Positions 510 through 39,975 of a DNA stretch of 64,000 bases are shown here, one piece after another. Below the pieces are notes generated by a model that saw only the letters and a list, made by a program, of their open reading frames with translations, had not been told where the DNA came from and did no database searches. The stretch is from Enterobacteria phage XTG1. The stretch is taken from the sequence record KT184316.1. One strand, 5' to 3'. The position numbers and the translations under genes are program-made. How positions within the stretch are numbered: position 1 is the first letter of the stretch; each line of letters opens with the position of its first letter.

Positions 510-2894
510 ATGGCAGATTACAAGTTGAGTGAATTAAACTCAATCGATACAATCCGTTCAGATGACCTTCTTCATGTCAGAGTTAAAAAGAGACCTGAAA
601 TGCTTGGCGATGAAGACCGTCGAATGACCTATCAAGATTTCTTAGCATCTTTTAAACTTGAGAGATTTGTTCAGATTGCTGGTAGCACTATGACAGGTGA
701 CTTAGGGATTGTTAAGTTACTTTATGGTGGTAAGGTAGTATTTAACCCAACAGGCTCTTCTGAGATTAATATTGGGGATGTTTTAAAGACTTTTAAAATC
801 AACGCAAATGGCCTTAAACTGACTATTGCAGACACTTCAAGGTCGGCAACTGTTTATCATACTCTGAATAAGCCAAGCCCTAATGAACTTGGGATGAGAA
901 CTAATGAAGAGAATGATGCAAGGTATGCAAGACTAGCTATCACAAACACATTCTCTGGAACTCAAAATATTCAAGGTGATGCTAACTTACTTCGCCTTAG
1001 AAACCAAAATGCAAATAATGCACAATATATCGAAGGTGTAAACCTAGATGGCTCGGCTAGATGGTGGGTTGGTATTGGTAGTAATGGCTCTGACGAAGTA
1101 AAGCTGTACAATAACAAATACAACTCAGCCTTGACTGTTGCAAGTAATGTCTCTGTTAATAAGTCTTTAGCAATCACTGGTCAAGTTCAACCTTCTGACT
1201 TCTCTAACTTAGATGCTAGATACTTTACTCAGACAGTAGCTAATCAGAGATTTGCACAGTTAGCTGCGAATAACAATTTCACTGGCACTAACACGTTTAG
1301 CAGAAACCTACTTATTATCAGTGACAGTGCTGCTTTAAGGTTGAAAAATGCAACAACTAGCTCACTATTCATTCAGGGTGTTGACTCTCAGAACACTAAC
1401 AGGTGGTATGTAGGGAACGGGGATAACACAGCCTCTGTGCTGCTACACAACTATGTACACGGTTCAAATATCAGACTTGATGATGGCTATATCTCAGTCA
1501 ACCAGAACTTCAGAATCACTGGTCAAGTTCAACCTTCGGATTGGATTAATATTGACTCTAGATATATTCCGGCAGCAACTTTGAGTAACCTACCTAAGCT
1601 TAATGTTGCTAACACATTTGTGAATGTGCAAACTATTGTATCAAATAATGAAGGCGTAGTATTAAGAAACTTAACACAGGGGCAGCCACAATATATCCGT
1701 GGTGTTGATACCCAGAATGTATCTAGGTGGTGGGTAGGTGTGGGTGGCACAAATTCTACTGATGTGGCATTAAACAACAGCTACTCTGGGACTCAAATTA
1801 CTCTTATGCCTTCAGCGATTAAGGCTAATAAGAACCTAACCATTACTGGTCAAGTTCAACCTTCTGATTGGTCTAACTTAGATGCTAGATATTTTGTTAA
1901 AACTCAGTTATTAAACCAATCCTTAATGACTGTTTCTGTAGATAACCTTGAAAACCCTTCAGGTTTTAATCTTGGATATTCAGGTTTTGTCAGAAACAAT
2001 CAGGTTGCTAGTGGACTGAGAGAATTGGCAATTCATGTTGCTCACTCTAATAAGACTGCTGCACATGCAAGAGGAATCTCTTTTGTGTATGGCTCAAATG
2101 GACTGGCAACATTTACCTATGCCTATGACAAAAATGGTGACTATGCCGGAGAGGCACAGCTTTACACAACTGATTTTAAACCAACCCCTTCAGATATCGG
2201 TGCATACACTAAAGCTGAAACTGACCAGAAGATTGCACAGGCAGTAAGTGACTCTACAGACCTTAATAAAATCTACCCAGTTGGTATTGTAACGTGGTTT
2301 AACAGTAATGTTGACCCTAACACAGCGTTGCCTGGGTTAACTTGGACGTACCTGAATAATGGTGTTGGTAGAACTATCAGGATTGCAGCAGCAAACGGTT
2401 CAGATGTTGCTACAACAGGTGGTTCAGATTCTGTGACGTTAGCTGTTGGTAACTTGCCATCACACACTCATAGTTTCTCTGCTACCACTTCATCTTTTGA
2501 TTATGGTACGAAGAACACTAATAGTACTGGTGGTCATACTCACTCTGTAAGTGGTACAACAAGTGCTGCTGGTAACCACGCCCACCACTTAGGTCTGCTA
2601 TTGGTTAATGGTGGTGATGCTCAGTATGGTTACACAACTGTTAGCAACAGCAAGACAAGAACTCTTGACTGGCTTGATAGAAAAGATAACAAATTCCCTA
2701 ACACTAACACAACTGGTAACCATACACACACATGGTCTGGTACTACAAGTAACACTGGTGCTCACACCCACTCTGTAGGTATCGGTGCTCACACTCATAC
2801 AGTTAGTGGTAACACTGGTGGTACAGGTTCTGGTTCAGCATTCAGTGTTACTAACCAGTTCTACAAGTTAATGGCTTGGGTAAGAACTGCTTAA
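510..2894 (+). CDS. Tail fibre protein with internal repeats and His-box C-terminal domain
   Basis: 794 aa; strong SD aagagga before ATG; three copies of ITGQVQPSD(F/W)xN(L/I)D(A/S)RY; C-terminal HTHS/NHAHH/AHTHS/AHTHT motifs paralogous to the upstream fragment. Confidence 0.8.
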   Translation: MADYKLSELNSIDTIRSDDLLHVRVKKRPEMLGDEDRRMTYQDFLASFKLERFVQIAGSTMTGDLGIVKLLYGGKVVFNPTGSSEINIGDVLKTFKINANGLKLTIADTSRSATVYHTLNKPSPNELGMRTNEENDARYARLAITNTFSGTQNIQGDANLLRLRNQNANNAQYIEGVNLDGSARWWVGIGSNGSDEVKLYNNKYNSALTVASNVSVNKSLAITGQVQPSDFSNLDARYFTQTVANQRFAQLAANNNFTGTNTFSRNLLIISDSAALRLKNATTSSLFIQGVDSQNTNRWYVGNGDNTASVLLHNYVHGSNIRLDDGYISVNQNFRITGQVQPSDWINIDSRYIPAATLSNLPKLNVANTFVNVQTIVSNNEGVVLRNLTQGQPQYIRGVDTQNVSRWWVGVGGTNSTDVALNNSYSGTQITLMPSAIKANKNLTITGQVQPSDWSNLDARYFVKTQLLNQSLMTVSVDNLENPSGFNLGYSGFVRNNQVASGLRELAIHVAHSNKTAAHARGISFVYGSNGLATFTYAYDKNGDYAGEAQLYTTDFKPTPSDIGAYTKAETDQKIAQAVSDSTDLNKIYPVGIVTWFNSNVDPNTALPGLTWTYLNNGVGRTIRIAAANGSDVATTGGSDSVTLAVGNLPSHTHSFSATTSSFDYGTKNTNSTGGHTHSVSGTTSAAGNHAHHLGLLLVNGGDAQYGYTTVSNSKTRTLDWLDRKDNKFPNTNTTGNHTHTWSGTTSNTGAHTHSVGIGAHTHTVSGNTGGTGSGSAFSVTNQFYKLMAWVRTA

Positions 2895-2901
2895 TCCCTT
2901 G

Positions 2902-2955
2902 TTGACTGATTGTTAAGATGGTGTTAATATTCTTTATGGGTATTCTCACCATCTT
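2902..2955 (+). promoter_or_regulatory. Sigma70-like promoter (TTGACT-17-TAATAT) overlapped by a 9-bp inverted repeat
   Basis: TTGACT 2902-2907, TAATAT 2925-2930; inverted repeat aagatggtg (2915-2923) / caccatctt (2947-2955). Confidence 0.45.
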
Positions 2956-2973
2956 GGCTGATGAGGTGATTAA

Positions 2974-3171
2974 ATGCCTACAATCCTAGCAATTCTTCTA
3001 AAAAATCTAGGTAGCTTCTTCTGGAAACTCATTTTATCCCTTCTAAGTGAATACATGATTGAGAAAGTGTTCTTTAGGCTTGCAAGATACCTTGCGAGTA
3101 AAACAGACACACCTATTGATGATGAGTTCGTAGATAACTTAGAAAAAGCTTTTAAGGGGGAGAATAAATGA
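2974..3171 (+). CDS. Hypothetical small protein downstream of tail fibre
   Basis: 65-aa ORF with hydrophobic N-terminus, 4-nt overlap with next ORF. Confidence 0.35.
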   Translation: MPTILAILLKNLGSFFWKLILSLLSEYMIEKVFFRLARYLASKTDTPIDDEFVDNLEKAFKGENK

Positions 3172-3539
3172 AGTGGCTAGAGGAAGCTTTTAAAAATAAT
3201 ATTGGTGCAATTGTAGTTGGTATTTTTAGTGTTATTGGGATGTATACCACCATGCAAGTCTCGGATGGTAAGCAAGAAGTGTCTGTCACAACAAAGTTAC
3301 AGCAGTTAGATAATTATTCCAAAAGTAACTATTCAGCTATTCGTGATTTACAGTCTGACATGAGACTGATTCAGCTAGGGATGGAGAACCAGAAAGTTCA
3401 GTTAGAGAATGTTAAGGGTGAAAACGCAAAACTTACCAAAACTCTTGATAAATTCTCTGACAGTGTGAACAATCTGGCTCAATCAGTATCAGCCCTCCAA
3501 GCTATTACTGAAAAGAACACAAAGAATACTGAAAGATAA
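3168..3539 (+). CDS. Hypothetical membrane-anchored coiled-coil protein
   Basis: 123 aa; N-terminal TM helix (GAIVVGIFSVIGMY) then heptad-rich segment; possibly a fibre assembly or lysis accessory protein. Confidence 0.45.
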   Translation: MKWLEEAFKNNIGAIVVGIFSVIGMYTTMQVSDGKQEVSVTTKLQQLDNYSKSNYSAIRDLQSDMRLIQLGMENQKVQLENVKGENAKLTKTLDKFSDSVNNLAQSVSALQAITEKNTKNTER

Positions 3540-3545
3540 AATTTA

Positions 3546-3572
3546 AGGCTCCTTTTTACGGGAGCCTTTTTT
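3546..3572. terminator. Bidirectional intrinsic terminator between convergent genes
   Basis: aggctcc-tttttacg-ggagcct hairpin followed by T6; sits between plus-strand ORF end 3539 and minus-strand gene end 3576. Confidence 0.6.
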
Positions 3573-3575
3573 GTT

Positions 3576-4475
3576 TTACTTGCCTACTGACAGAGGTGCT
3601 TCAATCTTCCCTGCATGTTGGTAGTTGTTAATTCCACCAATAAAGTCACTTGCAGTAAGATGTTTTAAGTCACTTAAAGTGTTAAGCTGTACACCAATCT
3701 CAAAAGTAGGTGCATGGAACTCTTCATTGTTCATCAGTTCATAAACCTGCTTCATATGGTTCTGATAAATCTGAGTATCTCCAAAGACACCTATCAAGTA
3801 CCGTGGAGTGTATCCAGTCATCTTGCAAAGAACTTCTAAGATGAAGCCATAAGACGCAATGTTAAACGGAAGTCCTAAAAAGGTGTCTACAGAACGCTGA
3901 TACCATTGCAAATCCACTTCACCTTCATTAGTGATATAAATCTGAAACAGAACATGACAAGGTGCTAAAGCCATTGAGTTTGCTGCAATATCTGCTGCAT
4001 TCCAAGCATTAACAAGCATGTAACGGTCTGTGATATCACCCTTCATCTTCGTTACTAAGGTCTCTAACTGGTCTACAACACAACCATTATGACCTTCGAA
4101 GTTTCTCCACTGGACCCCATAGATTCTCCCACCTGCATCTTCTAACCAATCTTGTTCAGAAGAATAATTAGAACTTAACCATCGTTTAAAATCATCTGAC
4201 CAGATAGTCCAGCGTTTCCCATCATTTTCACCCCAAGTACGGTAACGAAGTTCACCAAGTTTATTCTCACCATTCAGGAACCATAAAGCTTCCCCAATGA
4301 CTTGCCGTGTAAACACCTGTTTAGATGTTAAGAGCGGGAAACCAGTTCGCATATCAAAACGAAACTGAGGTGGAGCAAATGCAGAGATAACATCTCCAGT
4401 TCGTGTAGTACGCAGTTCACCAACGGATAAAACATGGTTCAGGATATTTTTGTAACTTGAATCTGCTTGTGACAT
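3576..4475 (-). CDS. thyA: Thymidylate synthase
   Basis: 299 aa; thymidylate synthase family signatures in translation (…RQVIGEALWFLNGE…, …ALAPCHVLFQ…). Confidence 0.93.
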   Translation of the reverse strand: MSQADSSYKNILNHVLSVGELRTTRTGDVISAFAPPQFRFDMRTGFPLLTSKQVFTRQVIGEALWFLNGENKLGELRYRTWGENDGKRWTIWSDDFKRWLSSNYSSEQDWLEDAGGRIYGVQWRNFEGHNGCVVDQLETLVTKMKGDITDRYMLVNAWNAADIAANSMALAPCHVLFQIYITNEGEVDLQWYQRSVDTFLGLPFNIASYGFILEVLCKMTGYTPRYLIGVFGDTQIYQNHMKQVYELMNNEEFHAPTFEIGVQLNTLSDLKHLTASDFIGGINNYQHAGKIEAPLSVGK

Positions 4476-4476
4476 A

Positions 4477-5022
4477 TCAAAAGTGTCCTTTTACTTGTGG
4501 AACATAAATTTCAAAAGTTGCTTTACTATCCTCTGATGGTTTTGACTGTACCTTTGTAAATACACGGTTATCATACAGCTTCTCAAAGAAGTTTTCAAAA
4601 GGTAAATGCACAGTGGCCTCTTCAGTAACTTTATGGAAGACTGTATGGAACACCACACCAGCATACGGTAAAGCATTGACAAGGACACCTGCACCACCAA
4701 TTACAAAGACATCTTCATCAATAGAGCTATCAAGATACTTCAAAAATGCTCCAAATGACTCTTTACTGGCTTTAGCATACATTACATCATCTTTGCCAAA
4801 GTCTATACCTAAGTGTGGTACAGAGTTTGTTAAGATGAGGTTTGCACGTTCTGGTAAAGGCTTACTCCCCAGAGTCTTGAAAGTCTCATTACCCATCACT
4901 ACTAAGTTGTTTTTAGTGAGTCTCTTAAACTCTTGCATATCTTGCTTATGTCGAGGCCACGGCATACCAGTCGGTGTACCAAATTCACCGTTTTCACCAC
5001 TTGCAAATATTAGTTTAATCAT
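4477..5022 (-). CDS. folA: Dihydrofolate reductase
   Basis: 181 aa; N-terminal MIKLIFA…GMPW and central VVMGNETFK…ERANLILT motifs typical of DHFR; adjacent to thymidylate synthase as in T-even phages (frd-td). Confidence 0.88.
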   Translation of the reverse strand: MIKLIFASGENGEFGTPTGMPWPRHKQDMQEFKRLTKNNLVVMGNETFKTLGSKPLPERANLILTNSVPHLGIDFGKDDVMYAKASKESFGAFLKYLDSSIDEDVFVIGGAGVLVNALPYAGVVFHTVFHKVTEEATVHLPFENFFEKLYDNRVFTKVQSKPSEDSKATFEIYVPQVKGHF

Positions 5023-5279
5023 TTTGTAAACCCTTTCTTAATGAACCAGTTGATGACACTCTTCACAACTTTACTACGATGGTAGATAAAATGTGGAGAT
5101 GGTTGGTATGAACCATAAGCCCAGAAAGCGATAATTTCATTACACCCTGTGCATCGGGTACTTTCTTCAGCAATATGACCGTTGACTATTTCACTTACCT
5201 CACCTTGTAAGTCTGTACACCCACAATGTGGACAACGGATAGGTGTTCCATCAGACTCATAGCAGTGTTCAATTTTCAT
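5019..5279 (-). CDS. Zinc-ribbon protein
   Basis: 86 aa; CPHCGC…CTGCNE Cys4 pattern; 4-nt overlap with folA start. Confidence 0.45.
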   Translation of the reverse strand: MKIEHCYESDGTPIRCPHCGCTDLQGEVSEIVNGHIAEESTRCTGCNEIIAFWAYGSYQPSPHFIYHRSKVVKSVINWFIKKGFTK

Positions 5280-5795
5280 CTATTTAACCTCAAAAACTGG
5301 CTCAAGAACCAATATAAAGTCTACACAGTCATCTTCTTCATCCAGAATACCATCAAAGTTCTTAGGAACGAAGTCGAAGAGGCTCATAACAAAACAGTCA
5401 GAAGTGACCTTGATAGTTCCTCCCATGTTCTCTACAGTCAACACTGTACGACTTTCTTTTACCTCCCTCAGAAGATTACCCACAAAGTCATCTAAGAAGT
5501 ACTTCATCAATGACTTAAAACCTTTAGGATAATCTGTACCAGAGTATGTTTCAATCTGAGGTACAAGCTTAACATTTATATTGGTCTTTGTTAAGAATGC
5601 ACTAGAGAACATACTATCAGGTAGCTTACAAACAGTCTTTCCAGTACCTTCATGTTCAATCTCAACAAAACCAGCTTCATCGCCACATGTAACTATTTTA
5701 AAAGATGCTTCATTCTCATACTGTGAAGCCATAAACTTTTTAAGCATCGTTTTAAGGAAATCTGCATGGGCATCTTGTAAGAATATATCAATCAT
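5280..5795 (-). CDS. Hypothetical protein
   Basis: 171-aa ORF in tightly packed minus-strand operon. Confidence 0.45.
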   Translation of the reverse strand: MIDIFLQDAHADFLKTMLKKFMASQYENEASFKIVTCGDEAGFVEIEHEGTGKTVCKLPDSMFSSAFLTKTNINVKLVPQIETYSGTDYPKGFKSLMKYFLDDFVGNLLREVKESRTVLTVENMGGTIKVTSDCFVMSLFDFVPKNFDGILDEEDDCVDFILVLEPVFEVK

Positions 5796-5808
5796 AGTTA
5801 ATCACCTA

Positions 5809-6168
5809 TTATGGGAACAGACACTTTATGTCATCGTTTTTAAAAACAAAACTTGTGTAGTTGTGACCGTCAACATCCAGCCAAACAGCCTGAACATCTA
5901 CACCATCAAGATTGTGGTAAAGCTCTTTGATGAAGTGGTCTTTCACAATCTGGCTGCTAGTTGTTTCCAGCTTAATGTTAGATATTGCTGAACCTACAGC
6001 CATATAACCCATGACACGTTTCTTCTCAGTATGCTTAATCTTACCATCTTTGTAAGCCATAATGAGATTGGAAAGAATCTTCACACCATAATACTTTTCA
6101 AGGTGAGTAGGTACGCCATAAAAGCCTAATGCGAAGTTTTCAGAGTGGATAATGTTTTCACGTTTCAT
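5809..6168 (-). CDS. Hypothetical protein
   Basis: 119-aa ORF in tightly packed minus-strand operon. Confidence 0.45.
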   Translation of the reverse strand: MKRENIIHSENFALGFYGVPTHLEKYYGVKILSNLIMAYKDGKIKHTEKKRVMGYMAVGSAISNIKLETTSSQIVKDHFIKELYHNLDGVDVQAVWLDVDGHNYTSFVFKNDDIKCLFP

Positions 6169-7059: not shown

Positions 7060-7170
7060 AATGACCTCAAAGTTATATTAAATTTTGTATTACGTTGAGT
7101 ATAAAAATAAGCTATAACACCTGACTTGTCAACAGATTTTATAGCTTATTTGGCAGATTTTTTATAAGGC

Positions 7171-7430
7171 TACTGCCATCCTTCCATACCTTACCTTACC
7201 ACACCTAACCATACCTAACCAAACTACACCATACAATACCTTGTTAAAAGACCCTTTTAAAGACCTTTTAAAAAGGTAAGTCTCATTTTAATGTAGCTGA
7301 GACTAACTACCCGCACTGAACCCGACCTTACCGAACCCTACCTCACAACACACCACCATACCGGACAAAACAGCACCTTATTAAAAGACCCTGTTTAAAG
7401 ACCTTTTAAAAAGGAGCCTCCGAAGAGGCT
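7171..7430. repeat. Intergenic repeat A: G-depleted tract of ACCTTACC/ACCTAACC-type octamers, palindrome ACCTTTTAAAAAGGT, conserved hairpin and minus-strand terminators
   Basis: Plus strand almost free of G over 7171-7245; perfect 15-bp palindrome 7264-7278; hairpin agtctca…tgagact 7280-7305; hairpin gagcctc/gaggctc 7412-7428 with T-tract on the minus strand; ~70-bp block near-identical to repeat B. Confidence 0.7.
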
Positions 7431-8490: not shown

Positions 8491-8565
8491 TTAGTTGATT
8501 GTTAAGTTGTTTGTAAAGAACCCTCAATAGAAGACTCTTTAGAAACTTGGTAGATTTTTAATGTG

Positions 8566-8830
8566 GCTACTACCATCCACCCATACCTTACCGAACCTTA
8601 CCCTACCCTACCAAAACGCACCTAACCTAACCGGACACTACCTTATTAAAAGACCCTGTTTAAAGGCCTTTTAAAAAGGTAAGTCTCATTTTAATGTAGC
8701 TGAGACTAACTACCCATACTTTACCTGACCGAACTAGACCCTACCTCACCAGACATAACCGCGCCAAACCTTACCGCGCCATACATCACTTAAAAACCCT
8801 CTTAAAAGACTCTTAAGTGATGCTGGTGAG
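8566..8830. repeat. Intergenic repeat B (paralogue of repeat A)
   Basis: Same octamer tract; shared block ccttattaaaagaccctgtttaaag(g/a)ccttttaaaaaggtaagtctcattttaatgtagctgagactaactaccc; palindrome CCTTTTAAAAAGG 8667-8679; further inverted repeats catcacttaa…ttaagtgatg and ggtgagta…tactcacc. Confidence 0.7.
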
Positions 8831-8876
8831 TACCCGTTGGTTTATGCTGCTCAGTATACTCACCAAATTTTCTATG

Positions 8877-14760: not shown

Positions 14761-14790
14761 TTGACAATGTACTTGACAAGGTGTTAATCT
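14761..14790. promoter_or_regulatory. Divergent-promoter motif: tandem TTGACAA boxes (TTGACAATGTACTTGACAAGGTGT)
   Basis: Near-identical 24-mer recurs at 61290-61313 in another divergent intergenic region; a related pair is at 50026-50047. Confidence 0.5.
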
Positions 14791-19583: not shown

Positions 19584-19612
19584 TTGACAATAGAGTATCA
19601 ACAAATTAGAAT
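19584..19612 (+). promoter_or_regulatory. Sigma70-like promoter TTGACA-17-TAGAAT
   Basis: TTGACA 19584-19589, TAGAAT 19607-19612; upstream of the SSB-like gene. Confidence 0.5.
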
Positions 19613-19648
19613 TGGTACTCTTCATAAATTGAGATAGAGGTTTAAATA

Positions 19649-30026: not shown

Positions 30027-30039
30027 AACTTGACATGGT

Positions 30040-30078
30040 GGTGTGAGTCTTGATAGGCTTACATCACCTTTTTTTATT
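30040..30078 (+). terminator. Terminator-like hairpin after nrdD
   Basis: Imperfect hairpin followed by T7. Confidence 0.4.
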
Positions 30079-34001: not shown

Positions 34002-34010
34002 AAGTTTATA

Positions 34011-34032
34011 GGGGCTTGAAAGCCCCATTTTG
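34011..34032 (+). terminator. Terminator-like hairpin
   Basis: ggggctt-gaa-agcccc then ATTTTG. Confidence 0.4.
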
Positions 34033-34046
34033 AGAGAGATTAAAAG

Positions 34047-35828
34047 ATGACTAAATCACTTTATGCAGTACCAGCAGGTTTAAACGCAGATGCTTACAAA
34101 TCTGGTCATGTTTACCAGTACCCTAGTGCAACAGAATATTTGATGTTCAACCTGACACCACGTAGCGACAAATGGTTTAACAGTCCATTAGCAATTGATG
34201 GTGTAGTCGCTTTTGGTATTCAACGTTTTGTTAAAGATTACTTGATAGACCACTGGAACGCTACGTTCTTTGAACGTGACAAAAAAGAAGCAATTGACGA
34301 AATCTTAGAAGTCATGAATGGTGTTCTGGGCAAAGATGCTATCGGTCGAGAGCATTGGGAAGCACTCCACGATTTAGGTTATCTACCAGTTGAAGTATAT
34401 GCTGTAGAAGAAGGTACAGTTGTCCCGATGCGTGTCCCAATGATTGTCTTCCAGAACACTGTTTCAGGCTTCCATTGGGTAGCAGGTTATCTGGAAGATG
34501 CTTTCTCTGCTGAGATTTGGAAGGCTTGCACCATTGCGACTATTGCATTGCACTACAAACGCATCTGTAAGAAGTGGGCTGACCTTACTTGTGACAATGA
34601 CTTACATTTACCTTATCAGTGCCATGATTTTGCTATGCGTGGTATGTCCGGCTTTACTGATGACGCATTTAACGCTGTAGGTCACTTAACCAGCTTTAAA
34701 GGGACTGATAGCTTCCCTGCTGTATACACGGCTAAACGAATCTATGGACAGTCCTACCCAATCTCTGATATTGGTAGTTCTGTACCAGCCACTGAGCACT
34801 CTGTAATGTGTGCAAACATTGCTTGGGAAGGTGGTAATGAGTTGATTGAAGAAGAAAGACGCTTTAAAGGTGAGTTACAAACCTTCCGTCGTTTCTTAAC
34901 AGAAACTTACCCAACAGGTATTGCAAGCATTGTTTCAGATACTTATAACTTCTGGAGAACTGTGTCAGAAATCTTACCAGCACTTCGTAAAGAAATTATG
35001 GAACGTGATGGCAAACTGGTAATTCGCCCTGACTCTGGAGACCCTGTACATATTGTCACAGGTTATAAAGCAATCCACTTAGAATGTGCTAAGAAGGCTT
35101 ATTACGAGCACCTAAGCAAGCTGGAAGCCAGTGACACAATGTTGAATGCTGTTCTGAACATGAAGCTTGAGAACATCAACTATGGTATTGCTGGATGGCT
35201 ACTGTCAGAAGGCTACGAGATGGTTGTTGACAGAGAAGACTTTGAAGTTGCTGATACAGTGATGTTGAAAAATGCTTATATGGTTGGTTCTGCAAACGTT
35301 GTAACACGTCCTGTAGCTGAGATTGATGGAGCTATTAAGACACTGTACAACATCTTTGGGGGAACTATTAACTCTAAAGGTTTTAAAGTACTGGATGAGC
35401 ATATTGGACTTATTTATGGCGACTCTATCACGTTGGAACGTGCAAATGAAATACTGAAGCGTTTGTATGAAATGGGTTTTGCAAGCTCTAACGTAGTGTT
35501 TGGTGTAGGTTCTTACACTTACCAGTACATGACTCGTGACACCTTTGCATTTGCTGTCAAAGCAACTCTTGCAAGCATTGGTGGTAAAGAGATTATGCTT
35601 GCAAAAGACCCTAAAACAGATAGTGGTGTTAAGAAGTCTGCTTTTGGTGGTGTAGCACCTATGTGGGATGGTGAAAATCTGAAAGCTGTAGATGGCTATG
35701 GGTTCCAGAGCTTTGCAGATGCACTTGAACATCCAGCTTGTGCTTTACGTCTAGTCTTTAGCGACTCTGAGCAGTTCGGCTACACAACTCTTGGTGATAT
35801 TCGAAATAATATTGACAAGCAGCTTTAA
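34047..35828 (+). CDS. Nicotinamide phosphoribosyltransferase (Nampt)-like protein; candidate nicotinamide ADP-ribose transferase
   Basis: 593 aa; called from overall resemblance of the translation to Nampt/NadV family proteins and from genomic pairing with the Prs-like gene; not alignment-verified. Confidence 0.7.
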   Translation: MTKSLYAVPAGLNADAYKSGHVYQYPSATEYLMFNLTPRSDKWFNSPLAIDGVVAFGIQRFVKDYLIDHWNATFFERDKKEAIDEILEVMNGVLGKDAIGREHWEALHDLGYLPVEVYAVEEGTVVPMRVPMIVFQNTVSGFHWVAGYLEDAFSAEIWKACTIATIALHYKRICKKWADLTCDNDLHLPYQCHDFAMRGMSGFTDDAFNAVGHLTSFKGTDSFPAVYTAKRIYGQSYPISDIGSSVPATEHSVMCANIAWEGGNELIEEERRFKGELQTFRRFLTETYPTGIASIVSDTYNFWRTVSEILPALRKEIMERDGKLVIRPDSGDPVHIVTGYKAIHLECAKKAYYEHLSKLEASDTMLNAVLNMKLENINYGIAGWLLSEGYEMVVDREDFEVADTVMLKNAYMVGSANVVTRPVAEIDGAIKTLYNIFGGTINSKGFKVLDEHIGLIYGDSITLERANEILKRLYEMGFASSNVVFGVGSYTYQYMTRDTFAFAVKATLASIGGKEIMLAKDPKTDSGVKKSAFGGVAPMWDGENLKAVDGYGFQSFADALEHPACALRLVFSDSEQFGYTTLGDIRNNIDKQL

Positions 35829-35842
35829 AAGTATATGATAAG

Positions 35843-35866
35843 AGGCTCCTACGGGAGCCTTTTTAA
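35843..35866 (+). terminator. Intrinsic terminator
   Basis: aggctcc-tacg-ggagcct + TTTTT. Confidence 0.6.
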
Positions 35867-35881
35867 TTTCTGGAGAAGATT

Positions 35882-36403: not shown

Positions 36404-38770
36404 ATGCGCATGGTAAACGACCACGCAGAAGTGATTAAGAGTTCAACTTCTTTAGAGACGTCTCAAGCACAGATTACAATGACACCTGAGATGTTCAGCC
36501 TTTTGAGTTCTGGTGTATATACCTTTAAAGAAAGGGCAGTGATTCGTGAACTGTCATGTAACGCAGTAGATGCTCAGAAAGAAGCTGGAAAAGAGAACAT
36601 CCCATTCCATGTGCATTTACCTACTCGTTTTGAGCCTTACTTCGAAGTTCGTGATTTTGGAACTGGATTGACTCATGATAAAGTTATGAGTTTGTACCTA
36701 AACTATGGAGCTTCTACGAAGAATGACTCTAATGACTACATTGGTGCAATGGGTATCGGCTCAAAGTCACCATTTGCAATTGCTCAGTCATTCACAGTAT
36801 CGAGCTATGTTGATGGTGTTGTTAATAAGTACTCTGTTTATCTTGAGAATGGTATCCCTCAAGTAACTAAGCTGACAACTAACCCAACAAAAGAACCTAA
36901 TGGTTTAGCTGTACGTGTGGCAGTTGCTGACCACCGTATCTCAAAGTTCTTTGAAGAAGCTGGGAATGTGTACTCATACTTCACTGTAAAACCAGAAAGT
37001 AATATTGAGTACGACGATGTATTAGCAGATATGAACGTCATTGCTCGTGAAGAAGGTGTTTATGATGCCATGATTCATAAGCAAAGCTGGCGTTCTAGTG
37101 GTAACAAGACAGAGTTTAATGTGGTGATGGGTAACATTGCCTACCCTGTTAATATGGAAGCATTACTTGGCGATGATTTCTTCAAAGTATTGCCAGAATT
37201 TTTCCGTAGGAGTGTAGACCTTGTAAACATCTACATGCCTATTGGTTCAGTTGCTATTGCAGCTTCTCGTGAAGCATTACAGATGAATGACACGACAAAA
37301 AATGTTATCATTGAGGCTACTAAAAAGATAACTGAAGCCATTACAAAGGATGTTATCAAGAAAGTTAATAGCCAACCTACACTCATGGATGCTGCACAGG
37401 CTTATGCTGAGTTACGTTTGAACTCACGAGAGATGTTTAATGCTGTGTGTCCAAAGCTAGAGTGGGGAGGCGTTAAGCTTGATTCTCTGGAAGAAGAATT
37501 GCTAAACATTCGTCGTGGGATTATCTACGCAGAAGACGGCTCAGTCATTTATGAACGTGACGGTAAAGGTAATATTAAGGTTGATAGGAACGGAAACAAC
37601 ATCCCTAAAGTAGATTACCTTTATGACCCAGTTGCTTATGTCAAGTTCAACTCTTTAGAGAGTAAGATTCGTGCAACAGCACTTTCCTACACTCAAGAGG
37701 CAAGTATGTTCAATATCTTTGGTGCAATGCGTAAAAGCCAAATTGAACAGTTTTTGTTCGTGATTAATGACCGTCGCAATAAAAACGGTACTGAGAAGAC
37801 TGTAGGACGAAATCAAATCTTGCGTGGTGCATGTCGAGACTACGCTAACGAGTCAGGCCTGTTCCACAGATACAATGGTATTGTGTTTGTATTCTCTAAT
37901 GAGAAAGAGTTAGATGATTTAATCAATCTGCACAAACTTGATAAAAGCTTGTTAAAGATTGTGAAAATGTCTGATAAGGAGCACCATTATCAGCGTAAAG
38001 AAGCTGTGAGGGGCGTTGTAAAACTCTGGAAAGCTGTTCCAGCAGAAGCTGTAGCTTCATACAAAGAGGTATCAGAAGACCTAGACACAATTGAAGAGCC
38101 TCAGCTTTATATTAAGGCAGTAGGCGACACAGTTGATGGTAGATGTTTTTGCTCATCTCCAGAAGATGTAGCTAAGTCAGTTGCTAATGTTACAGGTAAG
38201 ACAGTCTATGTTTTCCGAAAAGCAAATTGGAAAAAGATACCAGAAGATTGGATTGAAGTAGATGAGAAACTCTTGAACGACAGCTTAACTGATGTTCACT
38301 GGATTAACCATAACAGATATATGACGCGTATCTATATGAATGGTGTCCTTGACCTTACAAGCAGTTGGATTATTGCCAGAAACTTTACGTTTAATAACAG
38401 GAAGATTTCTCGCGGGTATTGTTATTCAAGGGATACTATTAAGACAATCTTCTTAGAAGGGAATGAAGATGCTGTTGAGGCAATGTTTGGTAAGATTCAG
38501 TATGTGGCTGCACCGTTTGCATACACTTACACTATCAGTGTTCTTCAGGATTTGAAGTCATGCCTTGATAATGACACAAAACTGTACAAAAAGATTAAGA
38601 AAGCAGGCGACCGCATGGTTATCAAGCTGACAAACTATCTTTCAAAAAGAAAACAAGAAAACTTCTTGCTTTCACACTTAGATTGGAATAAAGTATCACC
38701 TATCGAAGTGAGTAAGTTTTTAGGCTTTGATGTGAAGTGTGTTCCAGAAGGGACTACAATTTACGATTAA
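36404..38770 (+). CDS. rIIA: rIIA-like protein with N-terminal GHKL-type ATPase domain
   Basis: 788 aa; N-box-like RELSCNAVDAQ, G1 box VRDFGTGL, G2 box GAMGIGSKSPF; followed by an rIIB-sized gene. Confidence 0.55.
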   Translation: MRMVNDHAEVIKSSTSLETSQAQITMTPEMFSLLSSGVYTFKERAVIRELSCNAVDAQKEAGKENIPFHVHLPTRFEPYFEVRDFGTGLTHDKVMSLYLNYGASTKNDSNDYIGAMGIGSKSPFAIAQSFTVSSYVDGVVNKYSVYLENGIPQVTKLTTNPTKEPNGLAVRVAVADHRISKFFEEAGNVYSYFTVKPESNIEYDDVLADMNVIAREEGVYDAMIHKQSWRSSGNKTEFNVVMGNIAYPVNMEALLGDDFFKVLPEFFRRSVDLVNIYMPIGSVAIAASREALQMNDTTKNVIIEATKKITEAITKDVIKKVNSQPTLMDAAQAYAELRLNSREMFNAVCPKLEWGGVKLDSLEEELLNIRRGIIYAEDGSVIYERDGKGNIKVDRNGNNIPKVDYLYDPVAYVKFNSLESKIRATALSYTQEASMFNIFGAMRKSQIEQFLFVINDRRNKNGTEKTVGRNQILRGACRDYANESGLFHRYNGIVFVFSNEKELDDLINLHKLDKSLLKIVKMSDKEHHYQRKEAVRGVVKLWKAVPAEAVASYKEVSEDLDTIEEPQLYIKAVGDTVDGRCFCSSPEDVAKSVANVTGKTVYVFRKANWKKIPEDWIEVDEKLLNDSLTDVHWINHNRYMTRIYMNGVLDLTSSWIIARNFTFNNRKISRGYCYSRDTIKTIFLEGNEDAVEAMFGKIQYVAAPFAYTYTISVLQDLKSCLDNDTKLYKKIKKAGDRMVIKLTNYLSKRKQENFLLSHLDWNKVSPIEVSKFLGFDVKCVPEGTTIYD

Positions 38771-38775
38771 AGTGT

Positions 38776-38805
38776 TTGACAAGGGGCTTCAAAGCCCCTT
38801 AGAAT
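38776..38805 (+). promoter_or_regulatory. Promoter TTGACA-N17/18-TAGAAT with a GC hairpin filling the spacer
   Basis: TTGACA 38776-38781; hairpin aggggcttcaaagcccct in the spacer; TAGAAT 38800-38805. Confidence 0.5.
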
Positions 38806-38849
38806 AGCCTCACAAATTGATTGATTAACTAACAAGAGAGAGTAATAAG

Positions 38850-39959
38850 ATGACTACTAAAACTAAAGCACAGATTGACGCAGAAATTTACAAACTGGTT
38901 AAAGAAGGTAAGCTGACCAAAACAGCTATTGCACAGAAATTTAACACTTCAACCCGTTCAGTTGGTCGTGCTGTAGAGCGTCATGAAGCAACCTTAAAAG
39001 GGAAGAAGAAGGTGACTTCTACACCAGCTACGAAGACTTTGAAGCAAGTTGCTAAGACTTTTAAAAAGAAAGCTGGCAAACCAGTTGAAAAGGTCGTTAA
39101 AGACACTGTACAGAAAGCTCCAGTAAATAAACTGCACGAAGCTATGCAGAAAGATGACAAGATTGAGTACATGATTACTGGTGATTCTGTAATTATGACT
39201 TATGGTTCAGAATCTGAAATTGTTGAGTCTACTCATCCGAACTATCAAGAGATTGTAGTTCATGTTGTGAAAGGTGAGTTCAAGAAAGCATTTGAACTGA
39301 TGAACATTCGTAAGTCTATCGAAAACTTCACTCAGGGTGCTATCACAATCAAAGGTGACAAGCTATTCTACGGTGCTGTTGAGATGCGTTCTACTCTGGT
39401 TGACCGTATCCTCCACATGATGAAGACTGGTGATAAAGGTTTTGAACGACTTGTAATGTTCTTCGAAAAACTGATGGAAAACCCATCTAAAGATTCTGTA
39501 GAACAACTTTGGGGATTCGTATCTCACCTTGATGTTGAAATTGATGAAGAAGGTTACATCATTGGTTGGAAGAAAGTCTCTACTCGTGAAGGCAAGTTGG
39601 TTGACTCCCACACCTACAAAGTACCTAATGATTTGGGTAACATTGTAGAAATGCCACGTTGGATGGTTGATAACAACCGTAACGTAACTTGCTCTCAGGG
39701 TCTTCATGTTGGTGCTTGGGATTATGTTCGTTGCTTCTCAGGTGATACAATCCTGAAGGTTCGTGTCCATCCACGAGATGTTGTATCTGTTCCGACTGAT
39801 TACAACGATATGAAGATGCGTTCATCCCGTTATGAAGTTGTAGCAATCGTTGATAATCAGCGTAAAGTGCTGAAAGCGTGGGATGGTAAGACTGAAGCTT
39901 TGCATGTCATCGTTGGCACTGCTGGTGAACTCATCTCTCAACGTAAACGTGAAATCTAA
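38850..39959 (+). CDS. rIIB: rIIB-like protein (by position and size)
   Basis: 369 aa immediately downstream of the rIIA-like gene; Lys-rich N-terminal region; no independent motif recognised. Confidence 0.4.
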   Translation: MTTKTKAQIDAEIYKLVKEGKLTKTAIAQKFNTSTRSVGRAVERHEATLKGKKKVTSTPATKTLKQVAKTFKKKAGKPVEKVVKDTVQKAPVNKLHEAMQKDDKIEYMITGDSVIMTYGSESEIVESTHPNYQEIVVHVVKGEFKKAFELMNIRKSIENFTQGAITIKGDKLFYGAVEMRSTLVDRILHMMKTGDKGFERLVMFFEKLMENPSKDSVEQLWGFVSHLDVEIDEEGYIIGWKKVSTREGKLVDSHTYKVPNDLGNIVEMPRWMVDNNRNVTCSQGLHVGAWDYVRCFSGDTILKVRVHPRDVVSVPTDYNDMKMRSSRYEVVAIVDNQRKVLKAWDGKTEALHVIVGTAGELISQRKREI

Positions 39960-39975
39960 TAAGTAATTTCTTAAA

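Follow-up and report, generated by a model that had tools for sequence, protein, structure and literature searches.

The 64,000-nucleotide (nt) stretch of Enterobacteria phage XTG1 analysed here (sequence record KT184316.1; called the window below) belongs to a Felix O1-like myovirus of the genus Felixounavirus (Ounavirinae). Over positions 2000-6000 the window shares 97% identity with Felixounavirus LF82P3 and 94-96% with many annotated relatives. The subject of this analysis is a set of promoters that carry inverted repeats. The initial annotation had placed such repeats over promoters at 2902-2955, 38776-38805 and 61824-61859, and both the repeat arms and the promoter hexamers were located at these positions, named sites 1, 2 and 3 here. 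In a gene map built from open reading frames (ORFs) plus PHROG matches, all three sites are intergenic and lie between an upstream stop codon and a downstream ribosome-binding site with its start codon. Every gene flanking them is on the plus strand, and the PHROG matches are to conserved core genes. The features of the three junctions are the following.

2895-2973 (79 nt), plus strand: site 1 junction, between the tail-fibre gene (510-2894) and a 65-aa ORF (2974-3171)
2902-2907, plus strand: −35 hexamer TTGACT of site 1
2922-2930, plus strand: extended −10 element TGtTAATAT of site 1 (TG at 2922-2923, TAATAT at 2925-2930, 17-nt spacer)
2915-2923 AAGATGGTG and 2947-2955 CACCATCTT, plus strand: perfect 9-bp repeat of site 1, with a 23-nt loop
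2912-2923, plus strand: 5' arm of the site 1 outer stem, GTTAAGATGGTG, with the perfect core at 2915-2923
2947-2958, plus strand: 3' arm of the site 1 outer stem, CACCATCTTGGC
2926-2932/2938-2944, plus strand: inner 7-bp stem of site 1, AAUAUUC/GGGUAUU, holding most of the −10 element and the predicted start
2963-2976, plus strand: Shine-Dalgarno (SD) sequence GAGGTGA and ATG of the 65-aa ORF
38771-38849 (79 nt), plus strand: site 2 junction, between rIIA (36404-38770) and rIIB (38850-39959)
38776-38781 and 38800-38805, plus strand: site 2 promoter, TTGACA/18/TAGAAT
38781-38788 AAGGGGCT and 38793-38800 AGCCCCTT, plus strand: 8-bp stem of site 2, with the 4-nt loop tcaa
61812-61892 (81 nt), plus strand: site 3 junction, between a 123-aa ORF (61440-61811) and a gene for a Ro/TROVE-like RNA-binding protein (61893-63308)
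61824-61829 and 61848-61853, plus strand: site 3 promoter, TTGACA/18/TAAAGT
61825-61833, plus strand: 5' arm of site 3, TGACAGACT, overlapping the −35 hexamer
61851-61859, plus strand: 3' arm of site 3, AGTCTGTCA, overlapping the last 3 nt of the −10 hexamer

The promoter calls and start sites are consensus predictions, with the start taken about 7 nt after the −10 hexamer. Sites 1, 2 and 3 match 9, 11 and 10 of the 12 sigma-70 consensus positions, with spacers of 17-18 nt. The predicted start of site 1, at about 2936-2938, falls between the two arms of the repeat, that of site 2 (about 38812) lies past the hairpin, and that of site 3 (about 61860) immediately follows the 3' arm. Related loci were collected in three scans of IMG/VR viral contigs, which gave about 30 loci per site. 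When the whole window was scanned against Rfam, the gathering score was reached by tRNAs only, and no covariance model matched sites 1-3. Terminators are the sole such marks in the records of phages wV8 and KhF3, where sites 1-3 are bare, and a literature search turned up no account of promoters embedded in hairpins for Felix O1-like phages.

At site 1, the helix that can form in RNA is longer than the repeat in DNA. One G-C and two U.G pairs extend the stem to 12 bp (2912-2923/2947-2958), and together with a 2x2 internal loop and the inner 7 bp this makes an interrupted helix of about 21 bp. The fold energy lies well below that of shuffled sequences (z = −5.9), and the hairpin found in two divergent lineages reaches z = −6.9. 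With its four G.U pairs, the sense RNA is predicted to fold at −23.7 kcal/mol versus −12.8 for the antisense RNA. The −35 hexamer is kept in 28 of 30 related loci and reads TTAACT in the other two; the −10 element is conserved as well, with TAACAT in a single locus. Both arms and a 20-nt block, GGTATTCTCACCATCTTGGC, of which the 3' outer arm is a part, are invariant in all 30 loci. The variable parts are the loop, the segment between the −35 hexamer and the 5' arm, and the segment ahead of the ribosome-binding site. A compensatory change, C-G to U-A, is seen in divergent groups at the pair that closes the inner stem, and in one divergent group a U.G pair of the outer extension becomes C-G. The region upstream of the site 1 promoter is not A/T-rich (CTGCTTAATCCCTTG).

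The stem of site 2 runs from the last base of the −35 hexamer to the first base of the −10 hexamer (38781-38800), so that the hairpin fills the spacer, just as the initial annotation had described. The promoter is conserved in 29 loci. Five of the eight stem pairs are G-C, the loop is short, and the upstream region is moderately A/T-rich; the fold energy (z = −2.2) is symmetric between the strands. The stem GGGGCTT/AAGCCCC is identical to the stems of the T-tailed terminators at 473-490 and 34010-34027, and the position of their T-run is occupied at site 2 by the −10 hexamer TAGAAT. The GGGGCT/AGCCCC stem is kept in relatives, with conserved arms and variable spacers. One divergent group has a shorter stem closed by GNRA loops, GGGGCT-GAAA/GCAA-AGCCCC, and a contig with a 60%-identical rIIB carries a different hairpin, AAGTGGTCT/AGGCCACTT, which overlaps the −10 hexamer of a TTGACA promoter. 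At the rIIA-rIIB junction of Erwinia phage Prophecy there is a hairpin, GGGCTG-GAAA-CAGCCC, with no recognisable promoter.

A separate observation concerns the centre of the site 2 hairpin (38788-38795). Near-identical relatives (loci L032-L060) have either CTTCAAAG or CTTTGAAG at this position, and the two are reverse complements of each other. This suggests a hairpin-loop inversion polymorphism that arises by template switching.

The window has 18 perfect repeats that are 9 bp or longer and have a loop of 3-30 nt, compared with 9.3 ± 3.1 in dinucleotide shuffles, and a lone 9-bp repeat is not significant. Every TTGAC-type/TAnnnT pair in the window was then scored as a promoter-like site and classed by whether its −10 hexamer lies in coding sequence. 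The mean fold z is −2.39 for the intergenic sites (n = 28) and −0.19 for the intragenic look-alikes (n = 46; Mann-Whitney p = 5e-6), coding DNA being an imperfect control in that intergenic DNA is richer in hairpins anyway. A stem scoring at least 9 across the core from −35 to −10 is present at 5 of 20 intergenic sites, a non-redundant set from which repeated cassette copies were removed, and at none of the 46 intragenic ones (Fisher p = 0.0017). The overlap between hairpins and promoters exceeds chance. Speaking of three promoters also turned out to be an undercount, since the nested layout is found at at least six more, as listed here.

7105-7151, minus strand: 13-bp perfect repeat AAATAAGCTATAA enclosing TTGACA(7132)/17/TATTTT(7104), with the 3' arm running into a T-run; z = −4.1, arms invariant in 26 loci
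8823-8866, minus strand: 11-bp stem whose 5' arm lies in the spacer and −10 hexamer of TTGACA(8880)/16/TATACT and whose 3' arm lies downstream, the same geometry as site 1
19592-19621, plus strand: 10-bp stem whose loop holds the −10 hexamer TAGAAT of the promoter at 19584
30037-30068, plus strand: 14-bp stem followed by seven T's, enclosing the spacer and −10 hexamer of TTGACA(30030)/18/TAGGCT
63319-63350, plus strand: 12-bp stem reaching from just upstream of the −35 hexamer to the −10 hexamer of TTGACA(63327)/17/TAATAT, ahead of the tRNA cluster; z = −3.8, flagged as terminator-like
63423-63451, plus strand: 7-bp stem AACCACT/AGTGGTT spanning the spacer and −10 hexamer of TTGACA(63418)/18/TAAAGT, the same geometry as site 3

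The stem at the 63418 promoter shows two C-to-T wobble variants among relatives, and in a divergent group the hairpin is relocated into the spacer, as AACACT/AGTGTT. Kolesnikvirus phages have a TTGACA promoter-like site at their tail-fibre junction, with a canonical terminator behind it. As judged from such comparisons, the pairing of promoter and hairpin is one that persists at the junctions while sequences and exact offsets turn over.

Site 3 is where an accidental origin of the repeat has to be weighed most seriously. Its repeat is 9 bp long with a 17-nt loop, it folds at z = −4.3, and its promoter has a clearly A/T-rich upstream region (AAAAAATAATTTTAAAAGGTG). Because chance alone would place about nine perfect 9-bp repeats in the window, and five of the nine positions of the left arm belong to the −35 hexamer and three positions of the right arm to the −10 hexamer, the repeat could be a coincidence or a by-product of hexamers that are conserved for reasons of their own. 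Among 12 distinct sequences, 98% of cells are paired, and no pair was seen to be altered on both sides, so that double-sided covariation does not speak for a structure here. The sole variation consists of A-to-G and C-to-U changes in the 5' arm that retain G.U pairs. Yet AGTCTGTC is invariant in the 12 distinct relatives, and the arm positions outside the hexamers, GACT and CTGTC, are paired in all 12, while the spacer between the arms diverges freely. The arm geometry, with a 3' arm that starts at the fourth base of the −10 hexamer, also recurs with unrelated sequences at the 63418 promoter and in repeated cassettes at 45-49 kb. With the enrichment of repeats at promoters over intragenic look-alikes added to this, we regard coincidence as unlikely.

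A promoter-like site on the minus strand of site 3, GTGACA/18/TAGAGT (61860-61831), faces the plus-strand promoter. The mirror image arises because site 3 is palindromic; the site is weak (9/12) and lost in divergent relatives, and it was set aside.

Operator dyads that overlap promoters are familiar from LacI, lambda cI and MerR-type spacers, and the sites share with them dyad symmetry over the −35/−10 region. The repeats could accordingly act in DNA, where a dimeric regulator of the host or the phage would bind the dyad, or supercoiling would extrude a cruciform, and the embedded promoter would be switched. The dyads are perfect Watson-Crick repeats, the arms of site 1 never vary and their 9-bp core shows no covariation, and site 3 is symmetric, with equal stability on both strands. 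At site 2 the dyad is centred in the long, 18-bp spacer, which recalls MerR-type operators. The operator role that the initial annotation had considered nevertheless does not hold up well. Each promoter has its own arm sequences, and these do not reappear as a motif elsewhere in the window; one regulator therefore cannot explain the dyads, and several would be needed. When each arm was searched with mismatches, nothing recurred save the site 2 stem, which is a generic terminator stem, and the arms and the 20-nt block of site 1 are unique in the window. Half-site centres lie about 12, 26 and 32 bp apart, distances that do not agree with one another, and a spacing of 26 bp places the half-sites on opposite faces of the helix. 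No common half-site or cognate regulator was identified. The helix of site 1 extends solely through G.U pairs, which points to RNA, and its inner stem covaries; the Erwinia phage keeps a hairpin at the rIIA-rIIB junction where no promoter is recognisable. An action as operators or cruciforms is, on this evidence, quite improbable.

The reading that we favour, and hold to be somewhat on the probable side, is that the three repeats are conserved stem-loops nested in host-type (sigma-70) promoters and form compact stop/restart junctions. In double-stranded DNA the repeat would be mere promoter spacer and flank, and the host polymerase would read the hexamers. Each promoter has its predicted start inside the hairpin or beyond its 3' arm, and for this reason the full hairpin would form only in read-through RNA, that is, in transcripts entering from the tail-fibre gene, rIIA or ORF 61440-61811. 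In such RNA it would serve as a terminator-like attenuator, as a protective 3' structure for the upstream message, or as both. The embedded promoter would then restart transcription of the downstream gene, and its own transcripts would escape the hairpin. Since each junction is shorter than 85 nt, the stem-loop may have been pushed into those parts of the promoter that tolerate sequence change. A terminator scan found no canonical terminator between the upstream gene and the promoter at sites 1-3, and the next terminators past the three sites are at 3545-3568, 39973-39996 and 63319-63350. We infer promoter activity, start sites and the effect of the hairpins on RNA from sequence. The hairpins look like structures of the upstream transcript, as the initial annotation had suggested; this part of its proposal draws support from the predicted starts, from the sense bias of site 1 and its kept shape in divergent relatives, from the terminator stem at site 2 and from the promoterless hairpin of the Erwinia relative, and the stabiliser role itself is a guess.

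The published expression data for Felix O1 bear on the independence of the embedded promoters. By end-point reverse transcription PCR (RT-PCR), maximal expression was reported at 60 min for ORF77, the tail fibre, at 25 min for ORF78, the 65-aa ORF (2974-3171 in the window), and at 5 min for ORF79, the 123-aa ORF at 3168-3539 (PMC3185647 Table 3). The maxima of ORF 1 (rIIA) and ORF 2 (rIIB) were at 25 and 10 min, respectively (PMC3185647 Table 3). The ORF numbering could be matched to the window: the mass of gp77 is that expected of the 794-aa tail-fibre ORF, and the sequence of terminator t79 is that of 3545-3568. ORF 41, with which the rightward transcription unit is said to open (PMC3185647), corresponds to 61440-61811, an ORF that adjoins the divergent region. 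The differences in timing fit independent promoters at two of the junctions, those of sites 1 and 2.

Several observations weigh against stop/restart junctions. ORFs 41 and 42, which flank site 3, both peak at 25 min (PMC3185647 Table 3), and the stability of the site 3 hairpin is the same on both strands (−15.6 versus −16.0). Terminator scans called no terminator at any of the three sites, and no T-run follows the stems, whose tails read GCTGATGA, AGAATAGC and CATCAAAC. The stems of sites 1 and 3 are A/T-rich, and efficient intrinsic termination is unlikely there because the loops are 23 and 17 nt long. Whether as attenuator or as stabiliser, the role of the hairpins is a guess. Only one compensatory pair was found, at site 1; most pairs never vary, and such invariance backs a constraint on sequence as much as one on structure. 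The imperfection of coding DNA as a control, noted above, belongs here too. Strand bias in one-sided arm substitutions of all the promoter hairpins was also considered across about 30 loci; with seven sense-only and four antisense-only pairings it was not significant, and it was left unused.

Site 1 offers a further possibility, one compatible with stop/restart junctions, in that its 3' arm has an alternative predicted partner in the downstream ribosome-binding site. In read-through RNA the partner of the 3' arm region, GGGUAUUCUCACCAUC, would be the 5' arm; in promoter-initiated RNA it would be the SD sequence and AUG of ORF 2974, and the region would thereby act as a translational switch. 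Promoter-initiated RNA is predicted to sequester GGUGA and the AUG (−14.3 kcal/mol, z = −2.5, probability of the SD sequence being unpaired 0.21), and an SD-sequestering fold is also predicted in two divergent lineages. The invariance of the 20-nt block between variable neighbours is what would be expected of a segment with two pairing partners, although the same invariance allows no test by covariation. The differing times of ORF77, ORF78 and ORF79 are in keeping with the switch. Its z-scores, from −1.9 to −2.5, are modest, and in the read-through fold the SD sequence is mostly paired as well (probability unpaired 0.15), being held in a helix with the stop-codon region; one lineage does not conserve that helix. 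We consider the switch doubtful. If it were true, the 65-aa protein would be translated differently from early and late transcripts. Carried further, the nested hairpins would be one-way valves, each junction being handled according to the origin of the transcript, and at site 1 this would extend to translation of the 65-aa ORF. We give this wider view only a small chance; were it right, the 65-aa protein would come from one transcript class, and the junction would be a riboswitch-like device that depends on promoter origin.

An outer helix between the stop-codon region of the tail-fibre gene and the ribosome-binding site of ORF 2974 was tried as a candidate structure. It is better in one divergent group and missing in another, and was not relied on. 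The 65-aa ORF itself belongs to phrog_402, and a homologue in the RB49-like phage ECD7 lies between gp37, the distal tail fibre, and holin t. Some relatives call this ORF a holin and others attach that label to ORF 3168, so the assignment is unreliable.

RNase III processing hairpins occur in early mRNAs of T7-type phages. Site 1, whose interrupted helix of about 21 bp lies between two cistrons, resembles them, and processing by RNase III is conceivable there; cleavage could leave a protective 3' hairpin. Sites 2 and 3 differ from such hairpins in being too short for RNase III. A likeness to the Rho-independent terminators of the same phage (for example those at 473-490, 34010-34027 and 39973-39996; compare PMC3185647 Table 2) is seen in the position of the hairpins directly after a stop codon and in the stem of site 2, GGGGCT(T)/(A)AGCCCC, which belongs to the terminator stem family. 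Among the nested hairpins, those at 30037-30068 and 7105-7151 carry T-runs as terminators do, whereas sites 1-3 differ in having none.

The closest known arrangement is that of the promoter-early stem-loops (PeSLs) of T4-type phages, a design published in 2010. They are known from RB49/phi1 and, since then, from T4/PST and KVP40/nt-1 (Arbiol et al. 2010, PMC2839356; Comeau et al. 2014, PMC4122927). PeSLs are intergenic modules composed of an A/T-rich region, a strong sigma-70-like promoter and a stem-loop, and their terminator and promoter activities have been measured (PMC2839356; PMC4122927). In PeSLs the stem-loop lies between the promoter boxes, overlaps either box or stands just before the start. 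Correspondingly, the hairpin of site 2 is between the boxes and that of site 3 overlaps both; that of site 1 reaches from the spacer to past the start, with the −10 element inside. G-T pairs in the stems are another shared trait, as are the polyG/polyC stem of site 2 and the A/T-rich upstream region of site 3. The proposed combination of an upstream terminator or attenuator with a restart promoter is likewise common to both, its activities measured in PeSLs and predicted at sites 1-3 from sequence. The differences are equally clear. PeSLs are repeated, sequence-conserved cassettes of about 100 bp that border orphan genes in hyperplastic regions and serve as recombination sites, unlike sites 1-3, which are unique sequences at junctions of conserved genes, in a phage of a different family (Ounavirinae). 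Sites 1 and 3 are also without polyG/polyC, and site 1 is without an A/T-rich upstream region. By analogy, then, sites 1-3 appear to match the PeSL architecture in function and fail one of its defining features, the repeated cassette.

Other parts of the window contain elements of related interest. In a region of small ORFs at 44500-51200, the spacers are made of two repeated cassette families. In the first, TTGACA/17/TAAATT is followed by the stem-loop ATCAACGGGGAGGGAATGACCTTCCCC, at 44527, 47139 and 48004, and the stem-loop occurs alone near 49595, 50170, 50760 and 51090. In the second, found at 45019, 45838, 46439, 47509, 48304 and 48638, TTTACA precedes GGGGCTTAA..TTAAGCCCC, which sits inside an outer CTTTA/TAAAG stem. 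Unlike sites 1-3, these look like true repeated cassettes of the PeSL type.

Three further promoters, with −35 hexamers TTGACA or TTGACC and −10 hexamers TATGAT or TATCTT, are followed at once by a canonical T-tailed terminator, at 35812-35875 and, on the minus strand, at 56110-56177 and 58170-58239. The terminator directly abuts the promoter, and the predicted start therefore falls inside the 5' arm of the terminator. From their sequence, these units would be one more arrangement in which a terminator stays invisible to the promoter it belongs to. In both divergent intergenic regions, at 14761-14790 and 61290-61318, the same twin −35 motif, GTTGACAAnGTACTTGACAAGGTG(T), places two TTGACA hexamers 12 nt apart. 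Divergent early promoters were assumed but not located in the Felix O1 paper (PMC3185647), and the twin motifs are probably these promoters.

The segment at 51392-52874, 1.48 kb without an ORF or tRNA, holds numerous CTTGTTA/TGTTAA repeats, which frequently lie 11 nt from one another (as at 51896-51935, 52140-52190 and 52229-52322), together with long imperfect inverted repeats. These are iteron-like and may mark a replication origin or a protein-binding array. Large intergenic regions at 7150-7420 and 8547-8800 carry copies of a module of 125-250 nt, which on the transcribed (minus) strand consists of a GGT-rich tract of GGTAAGGT..-type units followed by AAAGGTCTTTAAACAGGGTCTTTTAA hairpins.

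The hairpin-embedded promoters extend a known concept and change none, and the feature is real yet fairly ordinary. The Felix O1 paper lists five promoters and leaves open how transcription passes the many terminators of the genome (PMC3185647). Promoters with nested stem-loops would supply a concrete and testable answer on passage beyond terminators, for phages that are widely used in typing and biocontrol. For engineering, such junctions may be compact natural parts that join an insulator to a promoter. The PeSL-type stop/restart layout would also occur outside T4-type phages and outside repeated mobile cassettes.

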